Shown here: in pieces, positions 265-56,612 of the stretch
Position numbering within the stretch: position 1 is the stretch's first letter
How the letters are laid out: each line of letters begins with the position of its first letter
Origin: a candidate division WWE3 bacterium
GTDB taxonomy: Bacteria; Patescibacteriota; WWE3; UBA101185; UBA10185
Direction of reading: 5' to 3'
NCBI GenBank assembly: GCA_003599255.1
Contig: QZJF01000016.1
Span: 863-64,862, forward strand
DNA length: 64,000 bases
Position numbers and translations under genes: made by a program
The notes under the pieces: model-generated
Database searches by the model: none
The model's input: only the letters and a program-made list of their open reading frames with translations
What the model was told of the DNA's origin: nothing

Positions 265-320
265 TGCATAGGAAGGTAAAAATTTTTATTACCTTACCTT
301 CCTATGCATCTCGTTCCTTT
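265..320. terminator. Perfect 15-bp inverted repeat (265-279 / 294-308) with 14-nt loop, followed by T-rich tract; likely bidirectional terminator between convergent genes
   Basis: gcataggaaggtaa ... ttaccttcctatgc read directly, then tctcgttccttttccttt. Sits between the stop of the + strand CDS (243) and the stop of the minus CDS (302). Confidence 0.5.
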
Positions 321-2509
321 TCCTTTAGAAAAAAAATAACTTCATTTAACCATTCCTTGCTGTGTGTCACGAATGTATTGTGTCCTGCGTCTTTGATTAC
401 CACAAAATTCGAATTTTTAATACCCTTGTGCAACTTTTCCCCTTCGTATAACGGGGTCATGGTGTCCTTATCGCCCCAGATTATTAGTGTCTTCGAGTCA
501 ATACTATTCAGATATGCTGTAAGATCCATGTTTACTACTTTATTTAATGTTTTACGCATTAGTGGTGTTGCACGTTTATAATCGGGGGACCCCATGAATT
601 TCACATAAATTTCAAGCAGGCGGTCATACAATTTTTCCGGCAACATAGTCCTAAGAAACTTTTTAATATTTTTAACAGAAAAAGATTTGGATATTTCAGT
701 TTTAACATCTTTTCTGTTTGCTACACCCGCAGCATTTGTAAGTATTAATTTATTTACAAGATCAGGATACTTAGAGGCGATATAAATTGCGAGTCTCCCT
801 CCAAAAGAATGCCCGATAAAATTGTAAGGTTTTCCGATATTCATTTGGCTTAATTTTTGGATCACAAAATCCGCATATTCAGGAATGCCCCAAGCCTCTT
901 TTGGTTCTTCGAGATCAAAACCTGGAAGCTGCATACTTACAGTCGGTAATCCTGCTGTATTAAGTGAGTCTTCAATTAATTTCCACTTCTTGGCCGAGGT
1001 GCCCCAACCGTGAAGCAGCACTGTTGTATTTTTGTTAGTTGTATCCATAACATGTAAAAAATCATCAACCAATTCCGAATGTTTAAATTCTAAATTTCCG
1101 TTAACGACAATATAAACTCTTTCGTTACCCGCTGACAGAGCTTGCATTTTTTTAATTGTCGATCCCTTATCATTTACTGTAATGATTTTTACGTTATCTT
1201 TAAGATGCCCGGCATACTTGACAGCTTTTATTCCCGAAAGTATTACATAATCAAACTTTGAGTTAATAATGTTCCAAGCTTTCTCATCCATTTCTTCTTC
1301 TTCATGAAAGTCAAAGTCGCCAAGTACAAGTATACGTTTGCCCGTCCAATGAAGCTCGTCAATTAATTCAAGTAAATGTTTAGTGTTTGTAGGGGTACCT
1401 TTAGCATAGTTGCTAAATAACTTAATACGTCCGTTTTCTAATATATGCCAGTTCATTCTTCCGGGCATAGGAATAAAATTAGTCAGACTGTCCATTATGG
1501 TCTGCGGATTGATTTTTAGTACATATCCTACCGATACCGCTGCTAAAGCAGTATACAGTCCTGATTTTCCAAGCAAAGATATGTTGCCGCTCACATTTTT
1601 GCCCGAAACGGAAATTTGATATAGGGTTGATATATCGAATTGTTCGAGTACTTTGCCTTTAATATCTCCATCTTTAATACCGAAAGTTACGATTTCTTTT
1701 TTTAACTCGTTACTTAATTTCAACGACTTGGCAAGATTTGGATCGTCTTTATTTAAAATTACCGTACCTTTTTCTTTTTGACATTTGATAATCTCGTTTT
1801 TAGCCTCAATTATACCTTCGACTCCTCCCAGAGTTTTGGAATGCGCTTCTTTAATGTTGAATACAAGCGATATATCAGGAGGAGCAATTCCACAAAGTTT
1901 TTCGATGGCTCCTTTTCTATCGGCAGGCAGTTCTATTACTAAGTAATAAGGTACTCCGGCGGTACTTAATGCTAGGTTAAAGACCATTTCCGGCAAAGTA
2001 ATTGGTGTAGGACGGGTTGTATATAACTTGTTTATATTTAACCCGGAGTTTTGTAAAACGGTATTTATACAATGAACCACAGTGGTTTTACCGGAGGATC
2101 CTGTAACCGCAATAATCTTTGTATTTAAATTTTCCAATAGGGCCTTTGCGGCTATTCCCATAAATTCTATTACGTTAGCCACTTTGAAATACGCGACTTC
2201 AGAATCTATTTTGTCAGGAAACTCCTCACAGACAATAATTTTGGCGCCATTTTTTATGGCATTATCTATAAAAGGTTGTCCATCAAAAAAGTATTTTCCG
2301 GGATTAGGTTTATACATGTACCAATATCTTTCTTCATATTTTTCTATAGGAAGTCTCGTTGCAAAGAAGACTGAGTTCACCACGCATTTTCTGCTGTCGG
2401 AAGTTGCCAACACAGGTCCAATTGTTTCAAGATCTACTGATGTATTTTTAATGTTTGTGCAGTGATCCCTTAGTATCTGCACTAATAGCTTTTTTTGGTT
2501 TAAATTCAT
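302..2509 (-). CDS. Mur ligase family protein (MurF-like, UDP-MurNAc-peptide ligase) fused to a C-terminal alpha/beta-hydrolase domain
   Basis: P-loop IIAVTGSSGKTT typical of MurF (GSSGKT) in the N-terminal ~480 aa. C-terminal ~240 aa has HGWG and GHSFGG nucleophile elbow and is ~50% identical to the standalone hydrolase at 3900-4628. Confidence 0.7.
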   Translation of the reverse strand: MNLNQKKLLVQILRDHCTNIKNTSVDLETIGPVLATSDSRKCVVNSVFFATRLPIEKYEERYWYMYKPNPGKYFFDGQPFIDNAIKNGAKIIVCEEFPDKIDSEVAYFKVANVIEFMGIAAKALLENLNTKIIAVTGSSGKTTVVHCINTVLQNSGLNINKLYTTRPTPITLPEMVFNLALSTAGVPYYLVIELPADRKGAIEKLCGIAPPDISLVFNIKEAHSKTLGGVEGIIEAKNEIIKCQKEKGTVILNKDDPNLAKSLKLSNELKKEIVTFGIKDGDIKGKVLEQFDISTLYQISVSGKNVSGNISLLGKSGLYTALAAVSVGYVLKINPQTIMDSLTNFIPMPGRMNWHILENGRIKLFSNYAKGTPTNTKHLLELIDELHWTGKRILVLGDFDFHEEEEMDEKAWNIINSKFDYVILSGIKAVKYAGHLKDNVKIITVNDKGSTIKKMQALSAGNERVYIVVNGNLEFKHSELVDDFLHVMDTTNKNTTVLLHGWGTSAKKWKLIEDSLNTAGLPTVSMQLPGFDLEEPKEAWGIPEYADFVIQKLSQMNIGKPYNFIGHSFGGRLAIYIASKYPDLVNKLILTNAAGVANRKDVKTEISKSFSVKNIKKFLRTMLPEKLYDRLLEIYVKFMGSPDYKRATPLMRKTLNKVVNMDLTAYLNSIDSKTLIIWGDKDTMTPLYEGEKLHKGIKNSNFVVIKDAGHNTFVTHSKEWLNEVIFFLKEKERDA

Positions 2510-2548
2510 ATGCCTTTAATACTAATGTATTATTAAGATATCGTATTT

Positions 2549-3205
2549 ATGAAAAATCTAAAGATCCTGCAACTCGATCAAGTACCTCATATAGACACTA
2601 TCGTTAGCATATTTGAGATTGTTGTGCTTTTGGCAATATATTTCTACGGACCGAGAACCAACAATGTTACTGAAATGATGTTTTCTATGGGAAGTTATTT
2701 CATATCATTAATTGTGATACTTCTCCTTTTTGTTTTCACTCTTATACAACAAAATCCGTATGGGGCAAACAATTTGAGCGACGCTCCGGAAATGTCGTAC
2801 AAGGCATTTGTGGAAACTTTTAACATCTTTAAGATAAGGTGGTTGGTACTTGGTTTTAGGATGATTGTGTTTGTTGTATTTCCTGTTATGTTTCCTCTGA
2901 TTTTCATCATATTGTATGGGATAGGAAGGGAACCGATATTAATGGGATTGTGGGTTTCGTGGTTTGCGATAAGTGAATTTATTCCTATTGCTTTCATACT
3001 AAAAGTTGCGGCGGATCCAGGAACTACAAGATTACAATTTTTTTTGCTGGCGGTAATTTTGGCAATTCCCGTTTTTTTTGACCGAGGTCTTATTTCTTAT
3101 ATACGCCCAACGGATACTTTACGTTTTGTTTCACTTCTGCCCTATCTGTACATCTGGATAGTGCCCATATTTAATACAGTGGTGAAACGGCCTAAAAATA
3201 TCTGA
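2549..3205 (+). CDS. hypothetical polytopic membrane protein
   Basis: ATG start. Several long hydrophobic segments. Divergently oriented to the MurF-like gene. Confidence 0.45.
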   Translation: MKNLKILQLDQVPHIDTIVSIFEIVVLLAIYFYGPRTNNVTEMMFSMGSYFISLIVILLLFVFTLIQQNPYGANNLSDAPEMSYKAFVETFNIFKIRWLVLGFRMIVFVVFPVMFPLIFIILYGIGREPILMGLWVSWFAISEFIPIAFILKVAADPGTTRLQFFLLAVILAIPVFFDRGLISYIRPTDTLRFVSLLPYLYIWIVPIFNTVVKRPKNI

Positions 3206-3216
3206 GGTTATTAATG

Positions 3217-3714
3217 TTATTCCCTATACGGCGTCAATCTTAAAAGTGTTTTCGCCCCGTCTCTGCTTAATCCGTCCCTAATCACTTTTTTCACCGAATT
3301 TCTCATCTTGCCGAGCGCCTCGCCCGAAGCGGTTTCGGCCGGACCAAACTGAGATGTTAGTTTGTTGTTGTATCCTCTAAGGCTGGATTGATCAAGTTCT
3401 GATAGTTTTCCTGTGGAATCTAATTGAAGCTGAAGTGCTTCGGCTTCAATAGCATACCCCATTGCCTGTTCAAACATAGTGTCAGCATTCATACCGGGGT
3501 TGAGTTCCCCCCAGACAAATTTTCTCTCCGGAGCTGTTCTATCTTTTTGAAGTGCTGCAAGATACTCTTTGTAATGGACAGGTAGACTTTCGATAAATTC
3601 TTGCCTGGGGCTTTTTACGACTTCAACAGGTTTTATCTCTTCTGCAACGGGTAGTCCGGTTAAATCCATTTCTTCGACTTCTGGTTTATATGTTTCTGTC
3701 ATAGTTACTTTCAA
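3217..3714 (-). CDS. hypothetical protein
   Basis: 165-aa ORF with AT-rich codon usage. No recognisable motif. Confidence 0.4.
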   Translation of the reverse strand: MKVTMTETYKPEVEEMDLTGLPVAEEIKPVEVVKSPRQEFIESLPVHYKEYLAALQKDRTAPERKFVWGELNPGMNADTMFEQAMGYAIEAEALQLQLDSTGKLSELDQSSLRGYNNKLTSQFGPAETASGEALGKMRNSVKKVIRDGLSRDGAKTLLRLTPYRE

Positions 3715-3899
3715 AAATTTAGTACATTCATGTATCAGTGATAATTATACAGGATTTACAAGGGTGGAAGATTGTTAATATGAAGAAACGTTCGAACTTT
3801 CTGCCGTATTTTTATAAGTCTTAATAATATGTTATGTTGTAACGAATGTAATCCCTAAGTACACACGTTTAGAACATTTTAAGGAGTTAGTACTATATT

Positions 3900-4628
3900 A
3901 TGAGCAACCAAGAAAGCTCTACCGTAATCCTGTTACATGGTTGGGGAGGCGTTGCTTTTTCGTGGCAGACCATAGAGCAAAGACTTAAGCAAATCGGGTA
4001 TCAATGCCTGAGTATTAGATTCCCCGGATTTGACCTGCCGCAGCCTTCAGAGCCTTGGGGTGTTCCTGAATATGCGGATTTTGTGTTGAACAGGCTTGAA
4101 CACCTTCAGTTAAAGCCTCCGTTCACATTTGTAGGACATTCGTTTGGTGGCCGAATAGCAATATATATTTCAGCTACCCGTCCGGATATGGTGGATAAAC
4201 TGATACTCACTGATTCAGCCGGTGTTGAGAATAGGCGTACACCGAAACTTCTTTTTGTGAGTACACTTTCCAAAGTGTTCAAGAAGCTGGATGGAGTACC
4301 GGTTGTGAATAAAATCAGCAGATCATTGCGTAAAATTATCTGGCGATTCACAGCCTCGCCGGATTACAGCAATGCCACCCCCATGATGCGGGAAATATTG
4401 AAGAAGGTTGTTGCCTTAAATCTTGAGCAATACCTTCCGAGTATTTGTGCTGATACATTAATAATATGGGGAGATCAGGACGAGGTGACCCCTATCAGGG
4501 ATGCAAAGGTTCTTAACCGCGGTATAAAAGGTTCAAGCCTTGTTGTGATTAAGGGTGCCGGTCATCATTCTCATATTTCGCATGTCCACGAATGGATGAA
4601 TTACGTCATTCATTTTCTGCGGAAGTGA
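3900..4628 (+). CDS. alpha/beta-hydrolase fold protein (paralog of the C-terminal domain of the MurF-like fusion)
   Basis: ILLHGWGG, VGHSFGG nucleophile elbow, C-terminal GHH. High similarity to residues ~495-735 of the 302-2509 protein. Confidence 0.8.
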   Translation: MSNQESSTVILLHGWGGVAFSWQTIEQRLKQIGYQCLSIRFPGFDLPQPSEPWGVPEYADFVLNRLEHLQLKPPFTFVGHSFGGRIAIYISATRPDMVDKLILTDSAGVENRRTPKLLFVSTLSKVFKKLDGVPVVNKISRSLRKIIWRFTASPDYSNATPMMREILKKVVALNLEQYLPSICADTLIIWGDQDEVTPIRDAKVLNRGIKGSSLVVIKGAGHHSHISHVHEWMNYVIHFLRK

Positions 4629-4633
4629 TACGC

Positions 4634-4672
4634 ATAGACTCGCCATAAAATTATGACGAGTCTATTTTCTTC
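4634..4672. terminator. rho-independent terminator hairpin (9-bp stem atagactcg/cgagtctat, 14-nt loop) plus T-tract, between convergent genes
   Basis: Read directly at 4634-4642 / 4657-4665, followed by ttttcttctt. Confidence 0.5.
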
Positions 4673-4716
4673 TTAAATTTTCCATGTATAGACGAGAGTC
4701 AAACTGCATTGATTTT

Positions 4717-5262
4717 TTAGTAAGGTACTGATTTTATTTTTAATGTGTATCCGATAAGGTTAGAAATAATATGAATGAAGAAAAACAAAAAAATTACCGT
4801 TAAAACAGCCTGTATCGACACTCCATAGAAGACCATTGCCATAGTCATACTTAATGTTGAATGATCTATTTCATCAAAAGGTATCCACGGTTTATGCGGT
4901 GCTATGTTAAATAGCCTTTTCGCCACACTTTTAAGAACATCGCCTGCTAGGGCGCAAAATGACATTAACAAATACAGTACCGTGTTTTCCGTAAAATCTA
5001 AATTTAGCAGTTGATAATCTTGCAGATGTTTGTCAAACACCAGGTACTTAATAATTCCCGAAGCCATTCCAAAGAGTACCCCAAACAGGAAACCGCCGAC
5101 TGTTTTATGATCCCCAATGATTCTAATCCCATTGATCGATTTACCTAAATCCAAAGGTGTATTAATAGCGTTGAAAAACGGTATAAAGCGACTAATAACA
5201 GCACCCATATTGGCGAATGCGGCAGGCAAGTAGAAATACACGCAAGAAATCAGAAAACCCAT
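4717..5262 (-). CDS. CTP-dependent cytidylyltransferase-like membrane protein (CdsA/CarS-like, DUF46-type); assignment tentative
   Basis: 181 aa with multiple TM segments. Motif GDVLKSVAKR resembles the GDxxxSxxKR of the CTP:phosphatidate cytidylyltransferase family, but the PGHGG motif is absent. Confidence 0.35.
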   Translation of the reverse strand: MGFLISCVYFYLPAAFANMGAVISRFIPFFNAINTPLDLGKSINGIRIIGDHKTVGGFLFGVLFGMASGIIKYLVFDKHLQDYQLLNLDFTENTVLYLLMSFCALAGDVLKSVAKRLFNIAPHKPWIPFDEIDHSTLSMTMAMVFYGVSIQAVLTVIFLFFFIHIISNLIGYTLKIKSVPY

Positions 5263-5266
5263 GACA

Positions 5267-5719
5267 TCATGTTACAGTAATTACTATTAAATAGAGTAGG
5301 TAGCAGAATCTTATAGCTATCAATATGTGTTTTCCTGATTTAATGCTGTAGTAAGAACCTATTATGTTAAACAAATATAAAGAAAAGAATAGGTTCCCCA
5401 CAAAAGTGCCTAAATATGCTACGAACATAAGTCCCTCGGAGATCCTGTCTATCACAACATCAAGCATCCATCCCTCTCTGCTTGTGAGGTTGTATTTTCT
5501 TGCCGCAGCCCCATCCATCCAATCAGATAGCAGTATTAAGGTAATCAAGAAAATGCCCAAAATGGGTTGTGGTTTGAATAGAAAAATAGCTGATAGAAAT
5601 ATAGAAAGAATTTGGTAGAAATTTGGATCCTTAATCGGAAAAATCAACTTACCCTCATACTTATCAAGTATATCCCTGTATATTTTTGCTAATTTACTAC
5701 GTTGAGGTATTTTATCCAT
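5267..5719 (-). CDS. CDP-alcohol phosphatidyltransferase family protein
   Basis: Motif DWMDGAAARK...G...LDVVIDR matches D-x2-DG-x2-AR...G-x3-D-x3-D. Small membrane protein. Overlaps the upstream gene by 31 nt. Confidence 0.7.
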   Translation of the reverse strand: MDKIPQRSKLAKIYRDILDKYEGKLIFPIKDPNFYQILSIFLSAIFLFKPQPILGIFLITLILLSDWMDGAAARKYNLTSREGWMLDVVIDRISEGLMFVAYLGTFVGNLFFSLYLFNIIGSYYSIKSGKHILIAIRFCYLLYLIVITVT

Positions 5720-6171
5720 AATATTGCAAAAATAATTATTACTGTAACATCAAGAAAGATTTTTATAGTTTTCTTTTGGGGTATCAACTGTATTTCGGTT
5801 TTGTCAACGGGGCTAAATGGTAAAGAAATGCCTACAAGCAAATCTTCAATTAAGTGAATCATTGCAGGAAGACCCAGAACTAACGCTAGTTTAGGGTTAA
5901 AGAAAGAAACAGCAAGCATTACCACACCTATTATCAAGAAACCCAAAAGTTCGTGTATAGGGCTTCTTGCCTTGTGTAAATGTCCACTAAACCCAACTTT
6001 CTTAAAGATTTTTCTATCCCGTATTAAAAAAAATAAATGATCAAGGTCTAAAATACCCGCAGAAATAAGCGATGTGGCTATATAGTCAAGTTCGTTAGGG
6101 GCCACATTTGCGACTTTAAGTGTAATGTAGGATGCCGAGACGATATGTGCGACAGTGGTCATGCTTTTCAT
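5689..6171 (-). CDS. hypothetical membrane protein
   Basis: 160 aa with 3-4 hydrophobic segments. First gene of a same-strand lipid-enzyme trio. Confidence 0.4.
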   Translation of the reverse strand: MKSMTTVAHIVSASYITLKVANVAPNELDYIATSLISAGILDLDHLFFLIRDRKIFKKVGFSGHLHKARSPIHELLGFLIIGVVMLAVSFFNPKLALVLGLPAMIHLIEDLLVGISLPFSPVDKTEIQLIPQKKTIKIFLDVTVIIIFAILWIKYLNVVN

Positions 6172-6233
6172 TATCGCATCTGTATCTTAAGAATAACAGC
6201 GTTGGGAGTTATGGTGAGGTTGTATGCAAATTA

Positions 6234-8087
6234 TTACAGCTCCCACGTCACCGGCAGCTTGCCGGTAAAGGGATAATCTCCGAACAAAACATCAGCCACA
6301 CCCTGGCCTTCACTTCCGGGCAGCCACGCTGCCACAACGGCGTTCCAATCATTGTGGAGTCCTTTTATATCAAGAGGTCTGCCGGATACTATTATCACCA
6401 CCAGCTTCTCAGATCGTGCCTTTGTCTTCTCGATAACCTCAAGGTCGTCTTTACTTAACGCCGGATGTGCTAGGTCTCCCCATCCCTCGGCATAAGGTTT
6501 TTCTCCAACAACGACAATACCTATATCCGCCCTTTTGCCGCTTGCTGAAAAATTTCCGGCTTCGTTGTATTCGATATCAGTACTATCCGAGACTGCGGCT
6601 TTAATTCCGGCTAAGATTGTTGTTCCCGGAATCCAATTTCCGTCTATACCCTGCCACTCAACCGTCCACGCCCCGGACTGCCTGCCGATATTATCCGCAG
6701 CTGATCCGGCTACAACAATACGGTCTACCGATTTTGATAATGGTAGTGTTTCGCCCGTATTCTTAAGAAGCACGAGTGACTTGCGAACCGCTTCCCGCGC
6801 TATATCCCGGTTAGCTTGAGAGCCTAGGACAGATAAGTCCGGATTATTAGATACATCGCGGTCAAAGAGTCCTAACTCAAATTTGACTAAAAGTATTCTT
6901 CGTGTCGCGTCATTGAGCCGTTCTTCACTAATATCTCCGGATTGCACTGCTTTTTCCATATAGTACATAAAAGATTTGTAATCGAAGGGAAGCATAATCA
7001 TATCTACACCGGCATTGACCGCGGTAACCAACGATTTATATTTGCTAATTGAAATTTCATATACACCATACCAGTCGCTTACCACAAAACCCTGAAAGTT
7101 TAATTCCTTTTTTAAAACGTCAGTCAATAGATAGCTGTTTGCCGCCATTTTTTTGTCTTCCCAGGTATTTAAACCTGCCATAACGCTTTTGGCACCTCCC
7201 TCAATTGCAGCTTTAAAAGGCGGAAGGTGAGTGCTTATCAAAGTATCCTCATCCAGTCTTGTTACACCTTGGTCTATGGCAAAGTTTATGTTTTTAGAGC
7301 TTCCCCATTCCATAGATCCGTTGCCGAGGTAATGTTTAGCGGTGGATAATACACTAAGACCTTCTACATATGCTTTTCCTAATTCCGCAACCGTATTAGG
7401 ATCAGATCCAAACGTTTCATACGTGCGACCCCATCGGATATCAGAAACCACATCTAAGTTTGGTGAAAAACTCCAATAAATATTTGTAGCCAGCATTTCT
7501 TCACTTGTTGCCTGAGCCGTTCGACGGACAAGGTCCGGATCGCTTGTTGCGCCAAGGCCGATAAAATGGGGGAAAATAGTTGCACCGGGAACGTTGCTGT
7601 GCCCGTGATTAGTGTCAACCCCATACAGTATTGGAATTCCAAGGCGGCTATATCGTGCCGATGACTCAAATCCGTTAACCATGTCCAACCATCCTTGGGG
7701 AGTATTAGGTTCAGGCTTTCCGCCAAACCCGCTCATCACTCCTCCCAGTCCATATCGGGAAACGTCAAGTGGATCATGAATGCTGTTTTTTTCCACCAAA
7801 GCCATCTGGCCGATCTTCTCGTCGGTAGTCATTCTGTTTAGTAAATCATCGACTCTTTGGTCAATAGGCAGGGACTTGTCTAGATACGGATAGTTGCTTT
7901 TTCTAAACTCATCTTGTGCGTAGATCTCAAAACCGGGGTGTTGCGGGGAAGGGAGTTGTTTATAGAGAAATATTATGCCTCCTATTCCGATACCAACAGC
8001 GATAAGTATAGTAAGGATGAAAATTTTACTTTTTGAAAGTTGTAGAAATCGCATAAATGTTGAGTGCATGCAGTTTAATTTTAGCAT
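6234..8087 (-). CDS. glycoside hydrolase family 3 (beta-glucosidase/beta-N-acetylhexosaminidase-like) with N-terminal signal anchor
   Basis: GFQGFVVSDW motif, two-domain GH3 length, N-terminal hydrophobic segment. ORF track starts at a TTG (8099); the first ATG is at 8087, with alternatives at 8069 and 8054. Confidence 0.75.
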   Translation of the reverse strand: MLKLNCMHSTFMRFLQLSKSKIFILTILIAVGIGIGGIIFLYKQLPSPQHPGFEIYAQDEFRKSNYPYLDKSLPIDQRVDDLLNRMTTDEKIGQMALVEKNSIHDPLDVSRYGLGGVMSGFGGKPEPNTPQGWLDMVNGFESSARYSRLGIPILYGVDTNHGHSNVPGATIFPHFIGLGATSDPDLVRRTAQATSEEMLATNIYWSFSPNLDVVSDIRWGRTYETFGSDPNTVAELGKAYVEGLSVLSTAKHYLGNGSMEWGSSKNINFAIDQGVTRLDEDTLISTHLPPFKAAIEGGAKSVMAGLNTWEDKKMAANSYLLTDVLKKELNFQGFVVSDWYGVYEISISKYKSLVTAVNAGVDMIMLPFDYKSFMYYMEKAVQSGDISEERLNDATRRILLVKFELGLFDRDVSNNPDLSVLGSQANRDIAREAVRKSLVLLKNTGETLPLSKSVDRIVVAGSAADNIGRQSGAWTVEWQGIDGNWIPGTTILAGIKAAVSDSTDIEYNEAGNFSASGKRADIGIVVVGEKPYAEGWGDLAHPALSKDDLEVIEKTKARSEKLVVIIVSGRPLDIKGLHNDWNAVVAAWLPGSEGQGVADVLFGDYPFTGKLPVTWEL

Positions 8088-8157
8088 GGGGTGGGGCAAG
8101 TTGGTCTTGTTTGGCTCTGCGGAGGGTACGATTTCAGAACTATGTTAAACTTTACTT

Positions 8158-9201
8158 ATGCTTTCCACGAAGGCTAACGAAAACCCCAACTCACAAGATG
8201 AAATAAATGAAAAAGTGGCCCCGGAGGGGGATGACGAAAAACAAAAACCTGATGAAGAATTGGGTTCGGGTACCGGAGAAGTCGTCAATAAGAATGAAGA
8301 AGAGGAAAAAAATAAGCTGGAGGAACTTAGAAAGGCCTGGTTTAATTCCAGTTTGCGCTCCACTTTGGCAACCGTTGGTGCAGGAGGTGCCTTTGTCGCC
8401 CGCGAGGCTTTGTCCAGTTATGCATCTGTAATTTCAAATCGTGAATATTGGGCTAGATATTATTATTTTGCACAAGATATATTTCAGAAGGGATTGCCTG
8501 CCACTTCTATAGAGGTTCAAAACCTGCTTCAGAATGCAAATACGGGTGAAGTGGCATTATTGGTAACAGGTGTAGCTTTAGCAGGATACGCTGTGTACGA
8601 AACTTACAAATCGTACAAGGCTGAAAAGGAATTCAAAAAGGAAAAACTGGTTCAACTGCATGAATTTTCAGATACTGCAGAAATGACTACTGAAGAGCTT
8701 GAGATGGTACAAGCAAAAGAAGATTGGTACGGCAATAGAATTAAGGCTGTCGTTGCCGCGGGATCCTCAGGTGTTGCTCTCATAGCAAAAAAATATCTTT
8801 CAGAAATTGCCCACAGCACTTGGTGGCAAGCAGAAAAGCAAGCAAGACTATTAGATGACTTAAGATACCACGACAAAGAACTTCCCGCAGAGGTTATTCA
8901 AAAATTTTATGCACTTTGTGAAAAAGTACAATATGCGGAAACCGGTGCTGCTGCAGCATTAGCTGCCGCAGTAGCGTTGGCAGGCTATTCTGCTTATAGT
9001 GCTTATAGGGCATTTAAAGCAAAAGAGGAGCTTAACCCCAAACCGGAACAGGAACCAGAACCTGAACCGAAACCGGAAACGAAACCAAAATCTGAACCAA
9101 AATCGGAACTTGTAGCACTAAGTTGTCCCGCTTGCGGCGCACCAGTGTCGTCTGCTGATAGCGTATGCCCTTATTGCCAGTCTGGTCTTGAAAGAAAGTA
9201 A
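8158..9201 (+). CDS. hypothetical Ala-rich protein with Pro/Glu/Lys linker and C-terminal CxxC...CxxC zinc ribbon
   Basis: ATG start. PEPEPKPETKPKSEPKSE repeat linker. C-terminal CPACGAPVSSADSVCPYC. Confidence 0.5.
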   Translation: MLSTKANENPNSQDEINEKVAPEGDDEKQKPDEELGSGTGEVVNKNEEEEKNKLEELRKAWFNSSLRSTLATVGAGGAFVAREALSSYASVISNREYWARYYYFAQDIFQKGLPATSIEVQNLLQNANTGEVALLVTGVALAGYAVYETYKSYKAEKEFKKEKLVQLHEFSDTAEMTTEELEMVQAKEDWYGNRIKAVVAAGSSGVALIAKKYLSEIAHSTWWQAEKQARLLDDLRYHDKELPAEVIQKFYALCEKVQYAETGAAAALAAAVALAGYSAYSAYRAFKAKEELNPKPEQEPEPEPKPETKPKSEPKSELVALSCPACGAPVSSADSVCPYCQSGLERK

Positions 9202-9224
9202 AAGTTTTTTTGAAAGGATTATTT

Positions 9225-9632
9225 ATGAAAGATAATAGATTGCTACCTACTCTTACCGAGTTGTTAAAGGAGATTGATCCAAAAGATGCAATGGATCGTG
9301 CTGAAGTAGGTATGAATATAGCTACACTCTCATTAGTAAAAGCTATACAAATTACCTCCGAGGAACTAACAGAAGAACAAAGAAAGGTAGTAGAAGGTAT
9401 ATTGAACAAAACGGAAAACAAAACGGATAGTACAAAGGAAATAATTGAATATCTGGATAGTATCTCAAAAAAGGATATATACCTTAAGAATCTGGCTGAA
9501 GCCACGAATTATTGGACCATTGATTTTATGCTCATGCTATATAAAAAAGTTGCTAAAGAGAAAAAAGAGCTGATTGATGTCTTATGGCCTAAACTAGGTG
9601 ATATAGCTGACGGTAAGCTTGATTATTTCTAA
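9225..9632 (+). CDS. hypothetical protein
   Basis: ORF track begins at a TTG (9210). The first ATG is at 9225 with an aaagga SD-like sequence upstream. Confidence 0.4.
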   Translation: MKDNRLLPTLTELLKEIDPKDAMDRAEVGMNIATLSLVKAIQITSEELTEEQRKVVEGILNKTENKTDSTKEIIEYLDSISKKDIYLKNLAEATNYWTIDFMLMLYKKVAKEKKELIDVLWPKLGDIADGKLDYF

Positions 9633-9890
9633 AAACTTTGTAGTTTGGGAAAACACGCCCCTATTATGCGAATTAACATTTGAATATACTCTGTTTCCTG
9701 GTTCGCTTCTGTTCCTTGCAAACATAAATATCTACAAGAAAGTTTTTAATAATTGTGAGAAGAATAAAATTGCTGATTATGAGTTGTTAGGGGAGTTTGA
9801 AACATTGATATCAAAGGATTTCGTTCGGATATCGTATACTTGGCTCCCCATTCAGGTCTTTATCCGAAGTTTATTTCCTGTTTTATATTG

Positions 9891-10424
9891 TTAACTGTAG
9901 TTGGGATCTGGCTTATAGTCTTTTGGTAAAACTACTTCGGGAGAAAATCTTTTTGCGTAATTGGCTAAAGTATCTAGTCCTACAAAAAATCTTCTTTTAT
10001 CTACTTCTTGAATGTTTTCTATACTATAAAATTCCATTTTTCCCTCTGAGTTAGATTTTATTTGTGAACCATATACTTGTGGTTTACCTAAGTACATATT
10101 CACACGGTCTTCTAATAATGCAGTATTTTTTGGCGAAACTTTGTCCTGATGAGATAGCATTAAATATAGGTATTTTTCCATAAACTCGATATCACTTTTG
10201 GGAGCATGTTGAACAATTAACCAGGCCGATTTAGAAATCTCTTCGCCAAAGCGTGGGATATCTATTAATCCGTATTTTTCTACAACCTCCTTTAATATAT
10301 TGGTATGTTTTTGATCTATTTTGGTAAGCTCATCCCAGTCGATATTTGGGCTATTACGCATTTCTTGATCGACTTTTTTCATATCTAGGATGGTTTTTTT
10401 GATTTGTTCGAATGTATTATCCAT
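9891..10424 (-). CDS. hypothetical protein, probably co-transcribed downstream of the ATP-grasp ligase (possible accessory protein of the graspetide locus)
   Basis: 177 aa with no TM segment. Lies 46 nt downstream of the ATP-grasp gene on the same strand. Confidence 0.4.
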   Translation of the reverse strand: MDNTFEQIKKTILDMKKVDQEMRNSPNIDWDELTKIDQKHTNILKEVVEKYGLIDIPRFGEEISKSAWLIVQHAPKSDIEFMEKYLYLMLSHQDKVSPKNTALLEDRVNMYLGKPQVYGSQIKSNSEGKMEFYSIENIQEVDKRRFFVGLDTLANYAKRFSPEVVLPKDYKPDPNYS

Positions 10425-10469
10425 AAAAAAAGAGAGATGTTGCAGGCAAGTTACAACATCTCCATGTTA

Positions 10470-11429
10470 TCATATCGACCCTTTACTCAGCATTTCGGCC
10501 ATTGCTTTGGAAATAACGATATTAGTATTTTCCTCCACGAATGCCCATTGTCCATTTGGATTCAGCTCTAAGAACCAATATATGCCTTCGGCATCTCGAG
10601 CTAATTCAATAACGCCAAACGGTAATCCTAGTTCTCTGAGATATCGTACACACTTGTCGGAAATCTCCTCCGGTAATTCAATCGGATCATAAGCTACTTG
10701 TCCGGTTGTAATCCCAGTCCTCCAGTCGGCTTTATTTTCCATTGAGCCTAAAGGAGTTGTGGAACATGCGAAAACTTGGTTACCAACGATAGTAATACGA
10801 ATATCCAGCTTTGGTGATATCTCCTGTTGGAATATCGTAGGTGTCAGGTGTAGCCCGCTAGTGTTTAAGGGCATTCCCTTGGCAATAGACGTAGCATAAA
10901 ACGCCTTAATACTGTTTCCGTCCTCAGACAGGAGTGGTGTGAATTTCAACGGCTTTGCCACTATTGAAGGAAATCGATCCTGAAAGTCTTCGATCTGCGT
11001 GCTATCGTTTGTAACAATTGTCTCCGGAACACAAAAACCCAGTCTTTGCGCTATTGCCAGTTGTAAAACCTTGTTATTTGCACGCATATGATTCTGGTAA
11101 GGCGATACCCAGAATTTGTCAGCAAGTAGATCGAAAAGCAATTTAACTCCCGAGGAATAGGCGTTATGGGCATACTCCTTATACTCTTCAGGTACCGGGT
11201 ATTGTGCTCGCTTTATGAAAGCTGGTTTTCTATACCATACAGAGCGCACAGAACTTAGATCTATACCGTTGTAAATCACACTAACAATTCCATCTCTGGT
11301 TACGTAGGTTAACTTCCCAGTTTCCGGAAAAGTGAATGTGTCGATTATAAGCATTTGTTCATCAAGGTGCTGTTGGACAAAGGGTAAATGCGAATCATCA
11401 GCTACAGATACTACAAGTATCGATGCCAT
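10470..11429 (-). CDS. ATP-grasp ligase of the microviridin/graspetide maturase type (MdnC/MvdD-like)
   Basis: FLELNPNGQW, LDIRITIVGNQVF, KADWRTG and VWYRKPAF motifs closely resemble recalled MdnC motifs (FLEINPVGEFFW, LELRITIVGEQIF, KYDWRKEG, VWYRR). ATG start with AAGGAG SD. Confidence 0.7.
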   Translation of the reverse strand: MASILVVSVADDSHLPFVQQHLDEQMLIIDTFTFPETGKLTYVTRDGIVSVIYNGIDLSSVRSVWYRKPAFIKRAQYPVPEEYKEYAHNAYSSGVKLLFDLLADKFWVSPYQNHMRANNKVLQLAIAQRLGFCVPETIVTNDSTQIEDFQDRFPSIVAKPLKFTPLLSEDGNSIKAFYATSIAKGMPLNTSGLHLTPTIFQQEISPKLDIRITIVGNQVFACSTTPLGSMENKADWRTGITTGQVAYDPIELPEEISDKCVRYLRELGLPFGVIELARDAEGIYWFLELNPNGQWAFVEENTNIVISKAMAEMLSKGSI

Positions 11430-11459
11430 TAGTTTCTCCTTCTAGGATCATGTGAAATG

Positions 11460-11498
11460 GGGAAATAGGTCTCTGTTGTTACATAACACCTATTTCCC
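11460..11498 (-). promoter_or_regulatory. Intercistronic perfect 11-bp stem hairpin (gggaaataggt / acctatttccc, 17-nt loop) between precursor gene and ATP-grasp gene; no U-tract
   Basis: Read directly. Precursor-downstream stem-loops are common in RiPP operons and are thought to set precursor:enzyme transcript ratios. Confidence 0.45.
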
Positions 11499-11505
11499 TG
11501 CTGGG

Positions 11506-11631
11506 TTAATCGTCCTCGGCGTAGTCGCCATCATGGTCAGGTCCGACAGTAGTCGTGTTGGTTTGAGTTCCACCCACACAAGCAACTGTTACGGGAGCTA
11601 CGATCATAAGATCTGCACCAAACGGTTCCAT
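11506..11631 (-). CDS. candidate graspetide precursor peptide (41 aa): MEPFGADLMIVAPVTVACVGGTQTNTTTVGPDHDGDYAEDD
   Basis: Small ORF immediately upstream of and on the same strand as the ATP-grasp gene. Extended SD agaaaggagg 8 nt before ATG. Core has a Thr cluster (T22,T24,T26-28) followed by an Asp/Glu cluster (D32,D34,D36,E39-D41). Leader PFGADL is reminiscent of the microviridin PFFARFL motif. Confidence 0.6.
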   Translation of the reverse strand: MEPFGADLMIVAPVTVACVGGTQTNTTTVGPDHDGDYAEDD

Positions 11632-11664
11632 GGCTTATTCCTCCTTTCTTATGTGATAATCCTA

Positions 11665-11693
11665 CATATACAGCCTCGTGTGCCCTTAGTCAA
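11665..11693 (-). promoter_or_regulatory. possible sigma70-type promoter for the precursor-ATP-grasp operon (TTGACT-17-TATATG on minus strand)
   Basis: On the plus strand, agtcaa at 11688-11693 and catata at 11665-11670. About 30 nt upstream of the precursor SD. Confidence 0.3.
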
Positions 11694-11823
11694 CGATAGT
11701 CAAAAAGTTAGGGTTTTCGCCAGTTATTTATCCGTATATGAAGTAGCAGTTCGAATATAGTTTAATTTGGATTGTTATAGAAAAATCTGATTATTTGTTG
11801 CTATGAAAACTAAAAGTCGTTAC

Positions 11824-11898
11824 TGGCTCCCCCGGCTGGATTCGAACCAGCGACCTAGCGCTTAACAGGCGCCCGCTCTACCGCTGAGCTACAGGGGA
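11824..11898 (-). tRNA. tRNA-Asn (anticodon GUU), CCA encoded
   Basis: Cloverleaf folded by hand: U1-A72 acceptor start as in E. coli tRNA-Asn, D-stem GCTC/GAGC, anticodon loop CTGTTAA, T-loop GGTTCGAATCC. Confidence 0.85.
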
Positions 11899-11988: not shown

Positions 11989-12912
11989 CTAGGCAGTGTT
12001 GGACGGAGGGTTGATGTCTTCAAGGTTCTTGGGTTCTTTTCTGTCCTCCGCTTTCTCGTCTTTTGCCAGATTCATAATTACCACCATGGCAAAGCCTATA
12101 TTTACAAGGGCAAACCAGAAGGGTAGATTCATATTAAATCCCACTGCATTGATCAAAACCTCGATTGTAATTGGCAAAGTCATGGCGTGCAGACATACTT
12201 GCATATTCTGCGTATACGTAAGCTTGGAACCGAAAATAAACGAACCCATCCAGGTAATGAACGCCGCCATCAAAATATAAATTGTCCTTAGTACGAGGTA
12301 GTAAAATAGTGTTCCCAAAAATATGAAGACTGCCAGTATGTATGGCAAATACTTGGTGAAAGATCGTACGCTTTCGACTGTGCTATCAAATTTCGATCTA
12401 TCAAATTGGGTGTCCGGGAGCTCTTCAATGGGATATACATCGTATTTGTTTGCCTGTTTAACTAACACATTCTTTTCGTTTACCAAAATAAGAGTATTGA
12501 GATTTTCAAAATCCTCTACAGTTCCGTTGTGGTCAAACACAATTAGATTTTCCGGAATTTCTGCTGCAGGGGTTTCAGGTGCCTGAGCCATGTCTTCCAG
12601 GCTTTCAACCTCAGGGAAAGGAATAATCAACGGTTCGGGTAGATTTATTGACCATTCGTTACCTTTAGTGGATATTACAAGCTCGGAAGGGAAGACATCC
12701 TTAATTTTTGTAAGCATCTCTTCCATTGTTCTGTTCAGCTCCGGATAAATATTAAATGAAACTGAAATAGTAATCAGGATCGAAGAAATAACGGCTAGTG
12801 AAAAGAAGTACTTTAGAGAAAAGGCAAGTGTAGTCTTTAGGACATCTTTGTAGTATCCTATAGATAGTAAACTGTTTTTATAAACGTAAACAAAGGCTTT
12901 GAGCTTATTCAT
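11989..12912 (-). CDS. hypothetical membrane protein
   Basis: 307 aa. N-terminal and C-terminal hydrophobic segments flank a soluble acidic region. Confidence 0.45.
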   Translation of the reverse strand: MNKLKAFVYVYKNSLLSIGYYKDVLKTTLAFSLKYFFSLAVISSILITISVSFNIYPELNRTMEEMLTKIKDVFPSELVISTKGNEWSINLPEPLIIPFPEVESLEDMAQAPETPAAEIPENLIVFDHNGTVEDFENLNTLILVNEKNVLVKQANKYDVYPIEELPDTQFDRSKFDSTVESVRSFTKYLPYILAVFIFLGTLFYYLVLRTIYILMAAFITWMGSFIFGSKLTYTQNMQVCLHAMTLPITIEVLINAVGFNMNLPFWFALVNIGFAMVVIMNLAKDEKAEDRKEPKNLEDINPPSNTA

Positions 12913-19271: not shown

Positions 19272-19347
19272 GGGCGATTAGCTCAATTGGCAGAGCGCTC
19301 GTCTTATACACGAGTGGTTCCTGGTTCGATCCCAGGATCGCCCACCA
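19272..19347 (+). tRNA. tRNA-Ile with UAU anticodon (reads AUA), CCA encoded
   Basis: Cloverleaf with standard numbering: acceptor GGGCGAT/ATCGCCC identical to tRNA-Ile(GAU) at 56613-56689. Anticodon loop CTTATAC gives anticodon TAT. Confidence 0.75.
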
Positions 19348-22580: not shown

Positions 22581-22654
22581 CGCGGGGTGGAGGAATGGCA
22601 CCTCGTCAGGCTCATAATCTGAAGGTCCCGGTTCGAATCCGGGCCCCGCAACCA
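22581..22654 (+). tRNA. initiator tRNA-fMet (anticodon CAU), CCA encoded
   Basis: CGCGGGG...CCCCGCAACCA with C1·A72 mismatch, as in E. coli tRNA-fMet. Anticodon loop CTCATAA. Confidence 0.8.
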
Positions 22655-22756: not shown

Positions 22757-22832
22757 GCCAACGTAGCTCAGTGGTTAGAGCGGGCGTTTCATAAGCGCTA
22801 GGTCGGTGGTTCAATTCCACCCGTTGGCACCA
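22757..22832 (+). tRNA. tRNA with CAU anticodon: elongator tRNA-Met or tRNA-Ile2 (lysidine)
   Basis: Acceptor GCCAACG/CGTTGGC. Anticodon stem GGCGT/GCGCT and D-loop AGTGGTTA resemble E. coli tRNA-Ile2 more than tRNA-Met. CCA encoded. Confidence 0.75.
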
Positions 22833-52018: not shown

Positions 52019-53338
52019 GTGAATCAGCTAATTTCAAAAATTAAAGAACACAATAAAGACCTTAAAAACAGGGAAATAGAGGGTATTTTGTACCTGCTGA
52101 TCTCTAATCATGGTATCTCGAGCATGGATTTGATAAAAGCAACCGGATTACCCAAAGAAACTTTGAGAATTTTTAAAACTTCCATTTCGCATTTACTTGA
52201 AAAAAATGATGAGGATAGACTGCAATTTACGGAAGAGAGTCTAAAAGTACTTAGGGAGTCCAATCTTCGTCCATATGATTGGAGTACTGTGAAATATGCA
52301 AACGCAGCCGCTGAAGCCGGGCTCGTTGACATAAGGAAAAAATATAAACTGCAGCCTAAGAGGGAGTTTGATCAGTTTTTTGCTACCGAAAGCACTTCAA
52401 TAGCCAAAACGATGGTGATGGAAAATAAATTAGGTCTGGAAAATAAAGATGTAGTGCTTCTTGGAGACGACGATCTAATTTCTATAGCACTTCCGTTGTT
52501 GGGAATTAAGCCAAAGAGCGTAACAGTGCTGGATATAGACAAGGATTTGCTTTCCGTTATAGAGGACATAACCGCCGATATGGGTATAAACAATACCCAC
52601 ACCTCTGTATACGATTTCAGAAAGGACCCTGACAAAAATCTTTTAAATAAATTTGATGTAGTTGTAACTGATCCGCCATATACATCGTCAGGCGTAAAGT
52701 TATTTTTAAACAGAGGGGTTCAGTTGCTCAAGAAAAAAGACGATCACTCTGGGAGTTACATTTTCTTTTATTATGGAAACAGTTTCAAATCACCGGAAAA
52801 GACTTTAAAAGTTCAGGACATTATAGGTAGATTCAATTTGGTAATTGAAGACAAGATAGACAAGTTTGCGCGGTACAATGGGGCGGAGTCTATAGGCAGC
52901 GCCAGTTCTTTGTATGTTCTTAAGTCCACATCAAGTACCTTTGAACTCAGTGACTTATCGGATTATTCCGATATTTATACGTACTCGTCAACTTCCGAAG
53001 AAAAGTTTCCGTACGTGGATCACTTTACCTTCAAGCTGTATAACGTTCCTGCGAACATGCTGAAATCAAAAACCGCTATTTTCAAGGCTGCCGGAGATTT
53101 TTGCACAAGACACAAGTTAAAGGTTGTTGACCAAAAGGTTACGAAGTTTAAAGGACAGGGGTTAACAGTAACCTATGTGCTTTCAAATTCAAACCTCTTG
53201 CTTCATACCTGGCCTGAGCACGGAGCACTGCATGTGGATCTTGTAACCTGTTCTCCCATATATGATAAGGAAGGACTTTCATACACTCTCATGAAGGTAT
53301 TCGGAGCTAAATCCATAGATACTAGGAAAATTGAATAA
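52019..53338 (+). CDS. putative bifunctional polyamine enzyme: aminopropyl/methyl-transferase-like domain (GDDDL, DPPYT motifs; DUF43/BpsA-like, tentative) fused to C-terminal S-adenosylmethionine decarboxylase (SpeH-type)
   Basis: C-terminal HFTFKLYNV ... LLLHTWPEHGALHVDLVTC matches the SpeH hallmark HTWPE...D.FTC. Middle region has VLLGDDDLIS and VVVTDPPYT. GTG start. Confidence 0.55.
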   Translation: MNQLISKIKEHNKDLKNREIEGILYLLISNHGISSMDLIKATGLPKETLRIFKTSISHLLEKNDEDRLQFTEESLKVLRESNLRPYDWSTVKYANAAAEAGLVDIRKKYKLQPKREFDQFFATESTSIAKTMVMENKLGLENKDVVLLGDDDLISIALPLLGIKPKSVTVLDIDKDLLSVIEDITADMGINNTHTSVYDFRKDPDKNLLNKFDVVVTDPPYTSSGVKLFLNRGVQLLKKKDDHSGSYIFFYYGNSFKSPEKTLKVQDIIGRFNLVIEDKIDKFARYNGAESIGSASSLYVLKSTSSTFELSDLSDYSDIYTYSSTSEEKFPYVDHFTFKLYNVPANMLKSKTAIFKAAGDFCTRHKLKVVDQKVTKFKGQGLTVTYVLSNSNLLLHTWPEHGALHVDLVTCSPIYDKEGLSYTLMKVFGAKSIDTRKIE

Positions 53339-53554
53339 AGGTTGTTATAATGAACAGGAATAACTGTTGACTTAATGATATTAAGTTGCTATCTTCCAGT
53401 TTGCTAGCAAATATATGCTAGAATTATTCGTTGTTTTGTTAATTCCGAAGAGAACTTTGAAATATACATAGATAGAGCAATCCTTGAACAATTAGTTTGA
53501 GTACCTTAAGTAACTTTGAAATTTTCGAGGTTCAAGAGGTAAGAAGAATATTTT

Positions 53555-55024
<1,470 letters not shown>

Positions 55025-55253
55025 CTAGGGAGAAAACACGTATCTTTGATTGATGGAATCTTGTGTTTGCTATACGCAAACAAAGGCCATTGAAATAGAA
55101 GATACAACATATATCCGATAGCTCTGAGGATATGTGTTTTAGGCTGTTATGTGTTGCCTCACAACAGCTGAGCAAGTTCGACAGTAAGCTTAAACTGTCA
55201 AAAGAAATATTCTTCTTGCCTTTTGGATCTTGAAATTTATATTGTTTGAAACT

Positions 55254-55622
55254 TTAGGACCTGGCTCTATCTCTGTATTCGTAACCAAGCATAATTAATT
55301 TTTGCTTCTGTTCATCATTTAAGTCTTTCCCGATTTCCTGCAGGAAGTCCTGCAACATTACTCTAATTGATTCTTCCAGATGTGTTTGGATTTCATCCTC
55401 TTTCCAGTATTTTTTAATAACCTGAGTTAATTCTTCAATATTGGCTGTTGGTGTAAAAATTTCATCAGAGCCTATTTTAGATTTAGTATCAGCCCCAAGT
55501 CTTAGAACAGCATTCCTGAATATCTTATCTGCAACATCTGTGGAAACTTCGTCTGCATTGTCAATTCCAATGCCGTTTAATAAATCAAACAAAAATTGTT
55601 TTAAAAGATTTTGATCATTCAT
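55254..55622 (-). CDS. hypothetical protein (antisense to rRNA orientation, in 16S-23S interval)
   Basis: 122-aa ORF whose start overlaps the upstream ORF stop (ATGA coupling). Confidence 0.35.
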   Translation of the reverse strand: MNDQNLLKQFLFDLLNGIGIDNADEVSTDVADKIFRNAVLRLGADTKSKIGSDEIFTPTANIEELTQVIKKYWKEDEIQTHLEESIRVMLQDFLQEIGKDLNDEQKQKLIMLGYEYRDRARS

Positions 55623-56035
55623 TACGATTCCTTTTCCTGTTGATTTTCAAAATGTTCTGCTGCTCTGCCGAAATATCTCGACATTCCATAGCCTACTGCG
55701 GCGCCGATGCTGCCAGAGATCACTCCGGCAGGGTTCCCGGTCACGGCTCCAATTGGAACTGTACCGGCTGACATGCTTCCCGTAACCAAAGTGCCTTTGC
55801 TTAGCGATTTAGCCAATTTTGCTCTTTCTTCATCTGTTTCTGCCCCTTTCTCAATATACTTTATTGCCATCCCTAATGCCGCTTCATCCATTCTTTCCAG
55901 CCAACCGCCTATAGTTTGCTTAATAGTTTCCATGTTACTAAGTTGTTCGGGTTGGGATATATCCGCAACACTTTCTGTTGCGTCTTCCGCCGAAAAATTC
56001 TCGTGTTCTGCGTCGTCTTTTAAAAACTCACTCAC
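55622..56035 (-). CDS. hypothetical protein with C-terminal glycine-zipper hydrophobic segment
   Basis: Acidic N-terminal half, then GTLVTGSMSAGTVPIGAVTGNPAGVISGSIGAAVGYG (GxxxG repeats). GTG start; start uncertain. Confidence 0.35.
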   Translation of the reverse strand: MSEFLKDDAEHENFSAEDATESVADISQPEQLSNMETIKQTIGGWLERMDEAALGMAIKYIEKGAETDEERAKLAKSLSKGTLVTGSMSAGTVPIGAVTGNPAGVISGSIGAAVGYGMSRYFGRAAEHFENQQEKES

Positions 56036-56109
56036 CTAATTATTATCAAACGGGCGGTAACTGAAGTCAACCGTTGTCGTGACTTGATTTAATGGTGTAA
56101 AATGCACCT

Positions 56110-56529: not shown

Positions 56530-56541
56530 CCTAAATGTTCT

Positions 56542-56564
56542 TGGTGGGCGATCGTGGACTCGAA
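56542..56564. repeat. 23-nt direct repeat identical to the 3' end (T-loop to CCA) of the adjacent tRNA-Ile(GAU); att-site-like duplication
   Basis: tggtgggcgatcgtggactcgaa occurs at 56542-56564 and again at 56613-56635 (the tRNA 3' end on the minus strand). The copies are 48 nt apart. Confidence 0.6.
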
Positions 56565-56612
56565 GACGCTCGCTTCGTTCGCTTGGTTCTCGTTGAGTAG
56601 ACCAAAAGTATA

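Follow-up and report, generated by a model that had tools for sequence, protein, structure and literature searches.

In MurT-GatD, the lipid II isoglutaminyl synthase, a Mur-family ligase is complexed with a small hydrolytic partner that is encoded adjacent to it and docks on the C-terminal side of the ligase. Natural Mur chimeras (including MurF-Alr; NF008896, NF008897) place a Mur ligase and another enzyme in one polypeptide. Those surveyed are MurE-MurF, MurC-Ddl, MurC-MurB, MurG-MurC, MurD-FtsW and MraY-MurG; the survey names no hydrolase partner, and the word 'hydrolase' occurs in it 0 times (PMC10214165). A literature search for a Mur-ligase/alpha/beta-hydrolase pair found no description of one. 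Here, we analyze such a pairing in a 64-kb stretch of DNA, the window, from a candidate division WWE3 bacterium (Patescibacteria, candidate phyla radiation or CPR). On its reverse strand, an uninterrupted open reading frame (ORF) with an ATG start at 302..2509 encodes a 735-amino-acid (aa) protein, in which a MurF-like ligase module (residues 1-487; 1049..2509) is followed by an alpha/beta-hydrolase module (residues 488-735; 305..1048). Our preferred reading, to which we assign a probability of about 0.7, is that the fusion is genuine and specific to this lineage: two genes of a conserved module have been joined in frame into a single ORF.

Both modules are recognized by Pfam well above the gathering cutoffs: Mur_ligase_M (PF08245) matches residues 135-327 (E 1.6e-28; 100.5 bits versus 24) and Abhydrolase_1 (PF00561) matches residues 497-716 (E 1.4e-23; 84.3 bits versus 25.8). 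The ligase module comprises a MurF-type N domain, a central ATPase domain and a divergent C domain, and its P-loop, GSSGKT (residues 137-142; 2084..2101), is common to canonical MurF and to the clade of relatives described below. The hydrolase module carries HGWG at residues 500-503 and GHSFGG at residues 566-571. The initial annotation had read a MurF-type ligase and a complete alpha/beta-hydrolase in one protein, encoded without a stop or frameshift; the Pfam and NCBIfam scans and the open frame agree. It had also placed the junction at ~1040-1100, and the exact point is now M488, at codon 1046..1048. The exact 735-aa sequence is already recorded as a protein of candidate division WWE3, and the same protein is encoded on two contigs, L003 and L004, from two different Joint Genome Institute (JGI) metagenomes (samples 3300007354 and 3300038436).

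The origin of this protein can be read from its relatives, in which ligase and hydrolase are separate genes. The closest ligase relative, P0002 (68% identity to the window ligase; contigs L001/L002), is 489 aa long and ends where the window hydrolase domain starts. A separate 244-aa hydrolase gene comes next, its ATG overlapping the ligase stop by 8 nucleotides (nt), ATGAATAA. The hydrolase gene likewise overlaps the ligase gene for P0003 (46%; L005; 8 nt), P0244 (35%; L009; 11 nt) and P0247 (32%; L012; 1 nt). In alignment, M488 of the fusion falls on residue 1 of a standalone paralog in the window and on the start codons of the separate hydrolases in L001, L005, L009 and L012. Across the six ligase contexts sampled, the hydrolase is fused or immediately downstream in five. 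The conserved ligase-hydrolase gene pair is effectively certain, and the start/stop overlaps of 1-11 nt indicate that the two genes are translationally coupled.

Across the junction, the window sequence is gat gaT TTT TTA cat gtt ATG gat, with a run of six T residues (T6) at 1056..1061 of the reverse strand. Adding one T to this run in silico restores two genes that overlap by 14 nt, one for a 491-aa ligase with the C terminus ...DDFFTCYGYN* and one for a 248-aa hydrolase, as in the relatives; taking one T away yields no two-gene arrangement. This comparison points to a single T lost from the homopolymer as the origin of the fusion, with M488 as the former hydrolase start codon, now internal. 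The single-T route is a simple evolutionary path, yet it is also the only site where a sequencing error could mimic fusion. One rival explanation is accordingly a sequencing or assembly artefact, in which the true sequence has T7 at 1056-1061 and encodes the same two overlapping genes. All four unfused relatives carry separate overlapping genes, the fusion is seen in no other close relative, and one T in a homopolymer, the commonest kind of indel error, separates the fused from the unfused state. Against this, the same T6 junction is found in contigs from two different samples that differ elsewhere. Over 12.5 kb the window matches L004 without a difference, and across the 11.8 kb that it shares with L003 it differs at one base; L003 and L004 show 31 mismatches and 2 gaps over 12.7 kb, and their flanks differ. 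In addition, the frame remains open for 248 further codons with every family-invariant residue intact. Because two independent assemblies agree on T6, we regard an artefact, including the read-through that the initial annotation had raised, as improbable, and the fusion as very probably real.

Synthesis of a separate hydrolase by re-initiation within the fusion seems unlikely, because no Shine-Dalgarno-like sequence lies upstream of M488 and the ligase stop codon has been lost. The paralog and a nearby ATP-grasp gene both have AGGAG upstream, in the form AAGGAG before the paralog start codon. Within the junction, the in-frame T TTT TTA at 1055-1061 of the reverse strand also fits the canonical X XXY YYZ pattern of a slippery heptamer. 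Slippage by -1 at this site would bring a stop 7 codons later and release the 491-aa ligase alone. Programmed -1 frameshifting at this U UUU UUA was considered and rejected: the downstream RNA is not unusually structured (z -1.1), and its hairpin starts ~36 nt away.

Ligase and hydrolase have also been joined elsewhere. An exhaustive phmmer search of 1.84 billion representatives recovered two further fusions, with opposite domain orders: in P0277 (869 aa) the ligase (241-577) precedes the hydrolase (635-859), and in P0269 (864 aa) the hydrolase (20-254) precedes the ligase (521-854). The P0269 cluster has 10 full-length 864-aa members from several sources and assemblies, and both proteins are encoded on high-GC contigs (0.66-0.70). 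Their hydrolases belong to the window hydrolase family. Their MurF-like ligase is a different one, with central and C-terminal Pfam domains; it is nearest to MurF (224-229 bits, below cutoff) and has a region of multiple transmembrane segments with an LQLE(G/E)Y motif where MurF has its N domain. The opposite domain orders require at least two fusion events, so that with the window there would be at least three independent ligase-hydrolase fusions. In two of the three architectures, the hydrolase is attached to the ligase C domain. The initial annotation would have taken the lack of the fusion in all relatives as a refutation, and this applies in part: the closest relatives carry the unfused overlapping pair, and it is in more distant ligases that fusions, of independent origin, are found.

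Recurrent fusion and conserved overlapping operons together imply that the two proteins work together, and functional coupling of ligase and hydrolase is strongly backed by these gene arrangements. Of the coupled ligation and hydrolysis in the cell wall that the initial annotation had envisaged, the coupling is upheld by the overlapping neighbour genes and the independent fusions; the cell-wall role is not, as it follows from homology to MurF and nothing else. The membrane-anchored fusions suggest that the substrate is lipid-linked in those organisms. The P0277 locus (L008 6001-10661) lies tail-to-tail with a bona fide ddl (343 bits versus a cutoff of 262) and a histidine kinase gene, and at the P0269/P0391 locus (L010 6001-10260) a YkuD L,D-transpeptidase gene follows some 700 nt downstream.

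By sequence, the window ligase belongs to the Mur ligase superfamily, with MurF as its nearest described member. The best NCBIfam match is TIGR01143 murF (residues 75-471), at 191 bits and below the curated cutoff of 288.6; other clade ligases score 146-202 bits. The best sequence matches in the PDB are all MurF (T. maritima 3zl8 first, E 7e-27), with MurE next. An AlphaFold2 (AF2) model of the ligase has a predicted local distance difference test score (pLDDT) of 92 and a predicted template modelling score (pTM) of 0.91. Foldseek ranks 1-9 for this model are all MurF (template modelling (TM) score 0.66-0.84), followed by MurE and MurC, with the caveat that the modelling alignment was mostly canonical MurF and could bias the fold. 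Ligase and hydrolase were modelled separately; a joint MAFFT alignment threaded MurF C-halves onto the hydrolase domain.

In common with MurF (TIGR01143; PDB 3zl8, 4qdi, 4cvm), the window ligase has the three-domain fold, GSSGKT, the Mg/ATP residues and the MurE/MurF-type N-domain signature DSR...F.A...DG...GA, here D38-S-R40 ... F48.A50 ... D76-G77 ... G88-A89. In alignments with canonical MurF, G137, G140, K141, T142, E193, H223 and R351 are invariant, K237 and N218 are nearly so, and D255/D256 are conserved across both groups alongside these catalytic residues. The differences from MurF begin with a ~19-aa insertion in the N domain, which bears a W/Y motif and is common to the clade. In the C domain, SNYAKGTPTN, LGDFDFHEEE and NGNLE replace the MurF motifs DDxYNANPxS, LGDMxELG and KGSR. 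The last two of these MurF motifs sit where the C domain holds the incoming amino acid. In a 12-member alignment (A2), the clade version of the first motif is x-N-x-A-K-x-x-x-x-N, with N367, K370 and N375 invariant (window N367-Y-A-K370-G-T-P-T-N375; 1385..1411, reverse strand). The second becomes LGxFDxxE(H) with a 6-residue deletion, and KGSR is lost with nothing conserved instead. Failing both the score and the C-domain motifs, the window ligase is not MurF as curated. It does keep all residues needed for ATP-dependent acyl-phosphate chemistry. The intact catalytic core, combined with a C-domain pocket that is conserved but altered, suggests that the enzyme is active and takes another second substrate.

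The clade formed by the window ligase and its relatives is rare and sharply separated from MurF. In the search of representatives, relatives of 470-520 aa fall into about 14 clusters (50% identity clustering). The clade clusters (P0002, P0003, P0242-P0253, P0267, P0291 and P0294) score above canonical MurFs, and their proteins carry only the central Pfam domain. A 12-member clade profile gives 574-677 bits for clade proteins and no more than 203 for canonical MurF, in a word-indexed database search that returned at least 4 clade members. Two members come from metagenome-assembled genomes (MAGs) named 'Candidatus Brocadia' and 'Hyphomicrobiaceae', and the clade ligase on L012 neighbours a Por_Secre_tail gene of the type IX secretion system (T9SS) kind; because of these labels and this neighbour, the clade is not confined to the CPR. 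A scan of reference genomes with the clade profile was set aside: it keyed on the generic P-loop and returned 80 canonical MurF loci at 22-30% identity, which are uninformative on the clade. A DNA pattern for the clade, GRM.W-10aa-[FY].N..K-4aa-N, matches the window and all clade loci examined. In metagenome_contigs it gave 10 chance matches without ligase similarity and did not recover even the JGI contigs that carry the window sequence; viral_contigs yielded 0 matches.

These data bear on a second rival explanation, in which the ligase is a housekeeping MurF, fast-evolving like many CPR proteins, that captured a neighbouring esterase by chance, leaving the fusion mechanistically meaningless. 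The best matches by profile, PDB sequence and fold, and the intact catalytic core and N-domain signature, would all fit a MurF of this kind, as would a genome that holds no second murF. Against it stand the score of 191 bits versus 288.6 and the exchange of the C-domain motifs for other residues that are themselves invariant in the clade. A gene with a housekeeping role throughout a large phylum would be expected to form far more than about 14 clusters among 1.84 billion representatives, and clade members occur beside the T9SS-type gene and in the Hyphomicrobiaceae-labelled MAG, in taxa that normally have a canonical murF. The gene is missing behind the same tRNA-Asn anchor in a related WWE3 contig, and the hydrolase pairing recurs, including in independent fusions. 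We consider this explanation unlikely, and the ligase quite probably an accessory paralog by its sequence and setting rather than the housekeeping MurF.

The hydrolase module is assigned to the alpha/beta-hydrolase fold by sequence and model. Family invariants in a 71-sequence alignment (A5) are H-G-W, P-G, the GHSFGGR elbow, A-G, W-G..D and a C-terminal His. In the fusion, Ser568 (806-808), Asp682 (464-466) and His710 (380-382, all on the reverse strand) fall on family-invariant columns and constitute the predicted Ser-Asp-His triad. The AF2 model (pLDDT 87.5) shows the canonical fold with a low-confidence lid, and its structural neighbours (TM about 0.7) are esterases, PHB depolymerase, BioH, MenH and C-C hydrolases, of which none stands out. 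NCBIfam scores are all far below cutoff: EstV (NF058580) 101.7/300, BioH (TIGR01738) 79.7/206.95 and MenH 61/209. The family resembles BioH, EstV and MenH in its length of ~245 aa, fold, HGW oxyanion motif, GxSxG elbow and canonical Asp and His. It differs from them in having its own conserved lid motif, S.DY..A...R..L..VV..D, and in its linkage to the ligase.

MurT-GatD offers a parallel in gene organization, since here too the partner follows the ligase directly, its gene overlapping the ligase stop or being fused to the ligase C terminus. The partner here is, however, a Ser-Asp-His alpha/beta-hydrolase rather than a class-I glutaminase, and the ligase has a MurF-type N domain and no DUF1727. 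Pfam and NCBIfam gave no MurT or GATase match for the window proteins, and P0244 reaches only 28 bits to MurT. From these comparisons, the window system is not MurT-GatD, BioH or EstV. Like the natural Mur chimeras, it joins a Mur ligase to another enzyme in one polypeptide; unlike them, its partner is not a known peptidoglycan-pathway enzyme.

A standalone paralog of the hydrolase (242 aa; 3900..4628, forward strand) lies in the window. The initial annotation had put it at about 50% identity and 1.4 kb away; identity to residues 488-730 is 47% (115/243, E 9e-81, far beyond chance), the alignment starts exactly at M488, and the paralog start lies 1.39 kb from the fusion start codon. A rough neighbour-joining tree places the fused domain in clade A, with the L001 partner, P0130 and P0241, and the paralog in sister clade B, with P0121-P0129. 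In L005, the partner fragment that follows ligase P0003 has 100% identity to one clade-B protein, P0124. Because the two fall in different clades, the paralog is not a recent duplicate of the fused domain; it belongs to a sister lineage with a linked ligase in at least one genome. There is no remnant of a second ligase beside it. An origin of the paralog as a foreign gene, proposed from higher GC, was rejected: its GC of 0.449 is near the window mean of 0.412, and it is the fused gene that is AT-richer (0.36).

Standalone members of the hydrolase family, of ~250 aa, are common (1317 matches at E<=1e-20) and occur in WWE3, Woesebacteria, Nealsonbacteria, Bacteroidales and Bacilli. Four contexts (P0122, P0123, P0126 and P0132) contain the hydrolase and no ligase, and three hydrolase-only loci read as DNA (L006, L103 and L104) contain no ligase remnant. 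Where the ligase is absent, a clade-B hydrolase can be coupled to a different gene of unknown kind: in L103 (4216-5729), it overlaps by 4 nt a 262-aa ORF without a family match. In the P0126 context, a 454-aa ORF without a Pfam match ends 26 nt upstream of the clade-B hydrolase.

The fused gene lies outside any mur/dcw cluster, the usual though not obligatory setting of murF, and among membrane, lipid and GH3 genes; by tblastn with MurE, MurF and MurE-MurF as queries, the window holds no further Mur ligase. L001/L002 carry DUF1189 and tRNA-Asn directly before the ligase gene, which the hydrolase gene follows. In the window, DUF1189 (11989-12912) and tRNA-Asn (11824..11898, reverse strand) mark the conserved edge of a variable region. 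They are followed by ~9.3 kb of other genes and then by the fused gene. This set encodes ATP-grasp, DUF6624, a zinc-ribbon protein, GH3, YdjM, a CDP-alcohol transferase, a CarS-like protein, the paralog and two unknowns. A third WWE3 contig, L006, has the same anchor and a different gene set, with a clade-B hydrolase only and neither a ligase nor a remnant of one. The stretches compared are 2549-11898 in the window, 6680-8001 in L001 and 6001-12729 in L006. From this comparison, the window region behind tRNA-Asn looks like a variable island. Neighbours of other clade members include EcoRII, Vsr and AAA_23 SMC-like genes (L011), Mrr and CoiA (L012) and a recombinase with an M78 peptidase (L009); a DNA methylase gene is present in L010. 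The fused gene has a GC of 0.36-0.37 versus 0.41 for the window, and the L001 value is 0.35. The variable anchor region, the mobile-type neighbours and the AT-richness indicate that the module is flexible-genome content and not core murF.

These contexts give some support to a third rival explanation, in which the module is a mobile accessory system unrelated to peptidoglycan that applies Mur chemistry to another carboxylate, as in an amide-linked polymer or conjugate, or in resistance or defence. Mur-family enzymes acting on non-murein substrates exist (FolC, CapB, cyanophycin synthetase and CfbE), and the island-like settings (a tRNA gene; restriction, recombination and methylase neighbours) and the low GC of the fused gene are consistent with such a role. 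Against it, PADLOC-DB 2.0, which covers known anti-phage defence systems, returned no family for the fusion or its paralog, nor for the neighbours, P0277, P0269 and P0249; the viral contigs gave no match, and the fused architecture is found on no plasmid. The clade keeps the MurE/MurF-type N-domain signature, which the other non-murein Mur-family enzymes lack, and the NCBIfam models of MurF and MurE score far higher than those of cyanophycin synthetase, CfbE and MurT. The ddl and YkuD genes beside the two independent fusions also point away from it. We give this explanation little credence, about as little as the artefact or the housekeeping MurF.

If the fused ORF is, as we prefer, the product of a conserved two-gene module, its history and a possible chemistry can be outlined as follows. 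In relatives, the module is an operon in which a gene for a divergent MurF-type ATP-dependent ligase precedes one for a small Ser-Asp-His alpha/beta-hydrolase. In this WWE3 lineage, loss of one T from the T-run brought the frames into register and tethered the hydrolase to the ligase C-terminal domain. The retained N-domain signature suggests that the ligase would activate, as an acyl phosphate, a carboxylate on a UDP-MurNAc-peptide-like molecule, and the altered C domain suggests that the amine to which it would join this group is not D-Ala-D-Ala. The hydrolase may act in the same pathway. It might deprotect or trim either the acceptor or the donor, or it might produce the nucleophile close to the C-domain pocket, in the manner of GatD with MurT. 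A pair that makes a product and then degrades it seems less likely, since two opposed activities in one polypeptide would amount to a futile cycle.

Parts of this scheme differ in strength. Action on a murein precursor with a non-canonical second substrate is possible, at odds that we would place somewhat below even. The full proposal is more tentative still. It holds that the module is an unrecognized two-enzyme system, in which a MurF-type clade adds a moiety other than D-Ala-D-Ala to a nucleotide- or lipid-linked muropeptide precursor with an obligate, dedicated hydrolase, and that it is an accessory cassette across CPR, Bacteroidota-like and high-GC bacteria, welded together at least three times.

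Several points weigh against our preferred reading and what follows from it. The length of the T-run is known from assemblies only. The link to the cell wall comes by homology to MurF only, and the ligase could still, at low probability, be a highly divergent housekeeping MurF. The structural neighbours of the hydrolase are generic esterases and C-C hydrolases and its lid is poorly modelled, so that many substrate classes fit. The hydrolase family is far more widespread than the ligase and often occurs alone. Finally, the most distant clade member examined, P0249 on L011, has no hydrolase neighbour. This ligase (30% identity; L011 4336-6572) is from the MAG labelled Hyphomicrobiaceae, and a 223-aa ORF without a family match lies upstream and overlaps its start.

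Other features of the window stand apart from the fusion. Next to the paralog, at 4717-6171 on the reverse strand, the CarS-like (CDP-archaeol synthase family), CDP-alcohol phosphatidyltransferase and YdjM genes lie in a row. At 8158-9201 lies a 347-aa ORF whose two halves resemble each other; it also has a low-complexity tail rich in Glu, Pro and Lys, and a zinc ribbon at the C terminus. A tRNA-Ile gene at 19272-19347 has the anticodon TAT, uncommon in bacteria, and CAT-anticodon tRNA genes are present at 22581-22654 and 22757-22832. The 439-aa ORF at 52019-53338 combines BpsA_C (branched-chain polyamine synthase) with S-adenosylmethionine decarboxylase and is another two-enzyme fusion, in polyamine synthesis. 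In the rRNA operon (53553-62630), 4.2 kb separates the 16S (53553-55024) from the 23S gene (59257-62387). This spacer holds tRNA-Ile(GAT) on the opposite strand, an ORF without a Pfam match (56766-57821), a CofD-family ORF (57831-58829) and tRNA-Ala. The 23S match spans 3131 nt versus a 2925-position model, and the gene may carry an insertion.

Few antibacterial targets have been studied as thoroughly as the Mur ligases, and every partner or fusion known for them involves an enzyme of their own pathway. The ligase-hydrolase coupling is recurrent and apparently undescribed, and would give a Mur-family ligase a new kind of obligate partner. It suggests an unrecognized chemical step on a muropeptide-like molecule, such as an alternative stem-peptide terminus or a protected or edited precursor; in the fused form, one polypeptide would hold both predicted activities in fixed stoichiometry. 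CPR bacteria are host-attached and have a pared-down metabolism, and editing of the envelope could bear on their interaction with the host or on resistance to lytic enzymes. If the module proves unrelated to murein, it would still widen the range of reactions carried out on the Mur-ligase scaffold.

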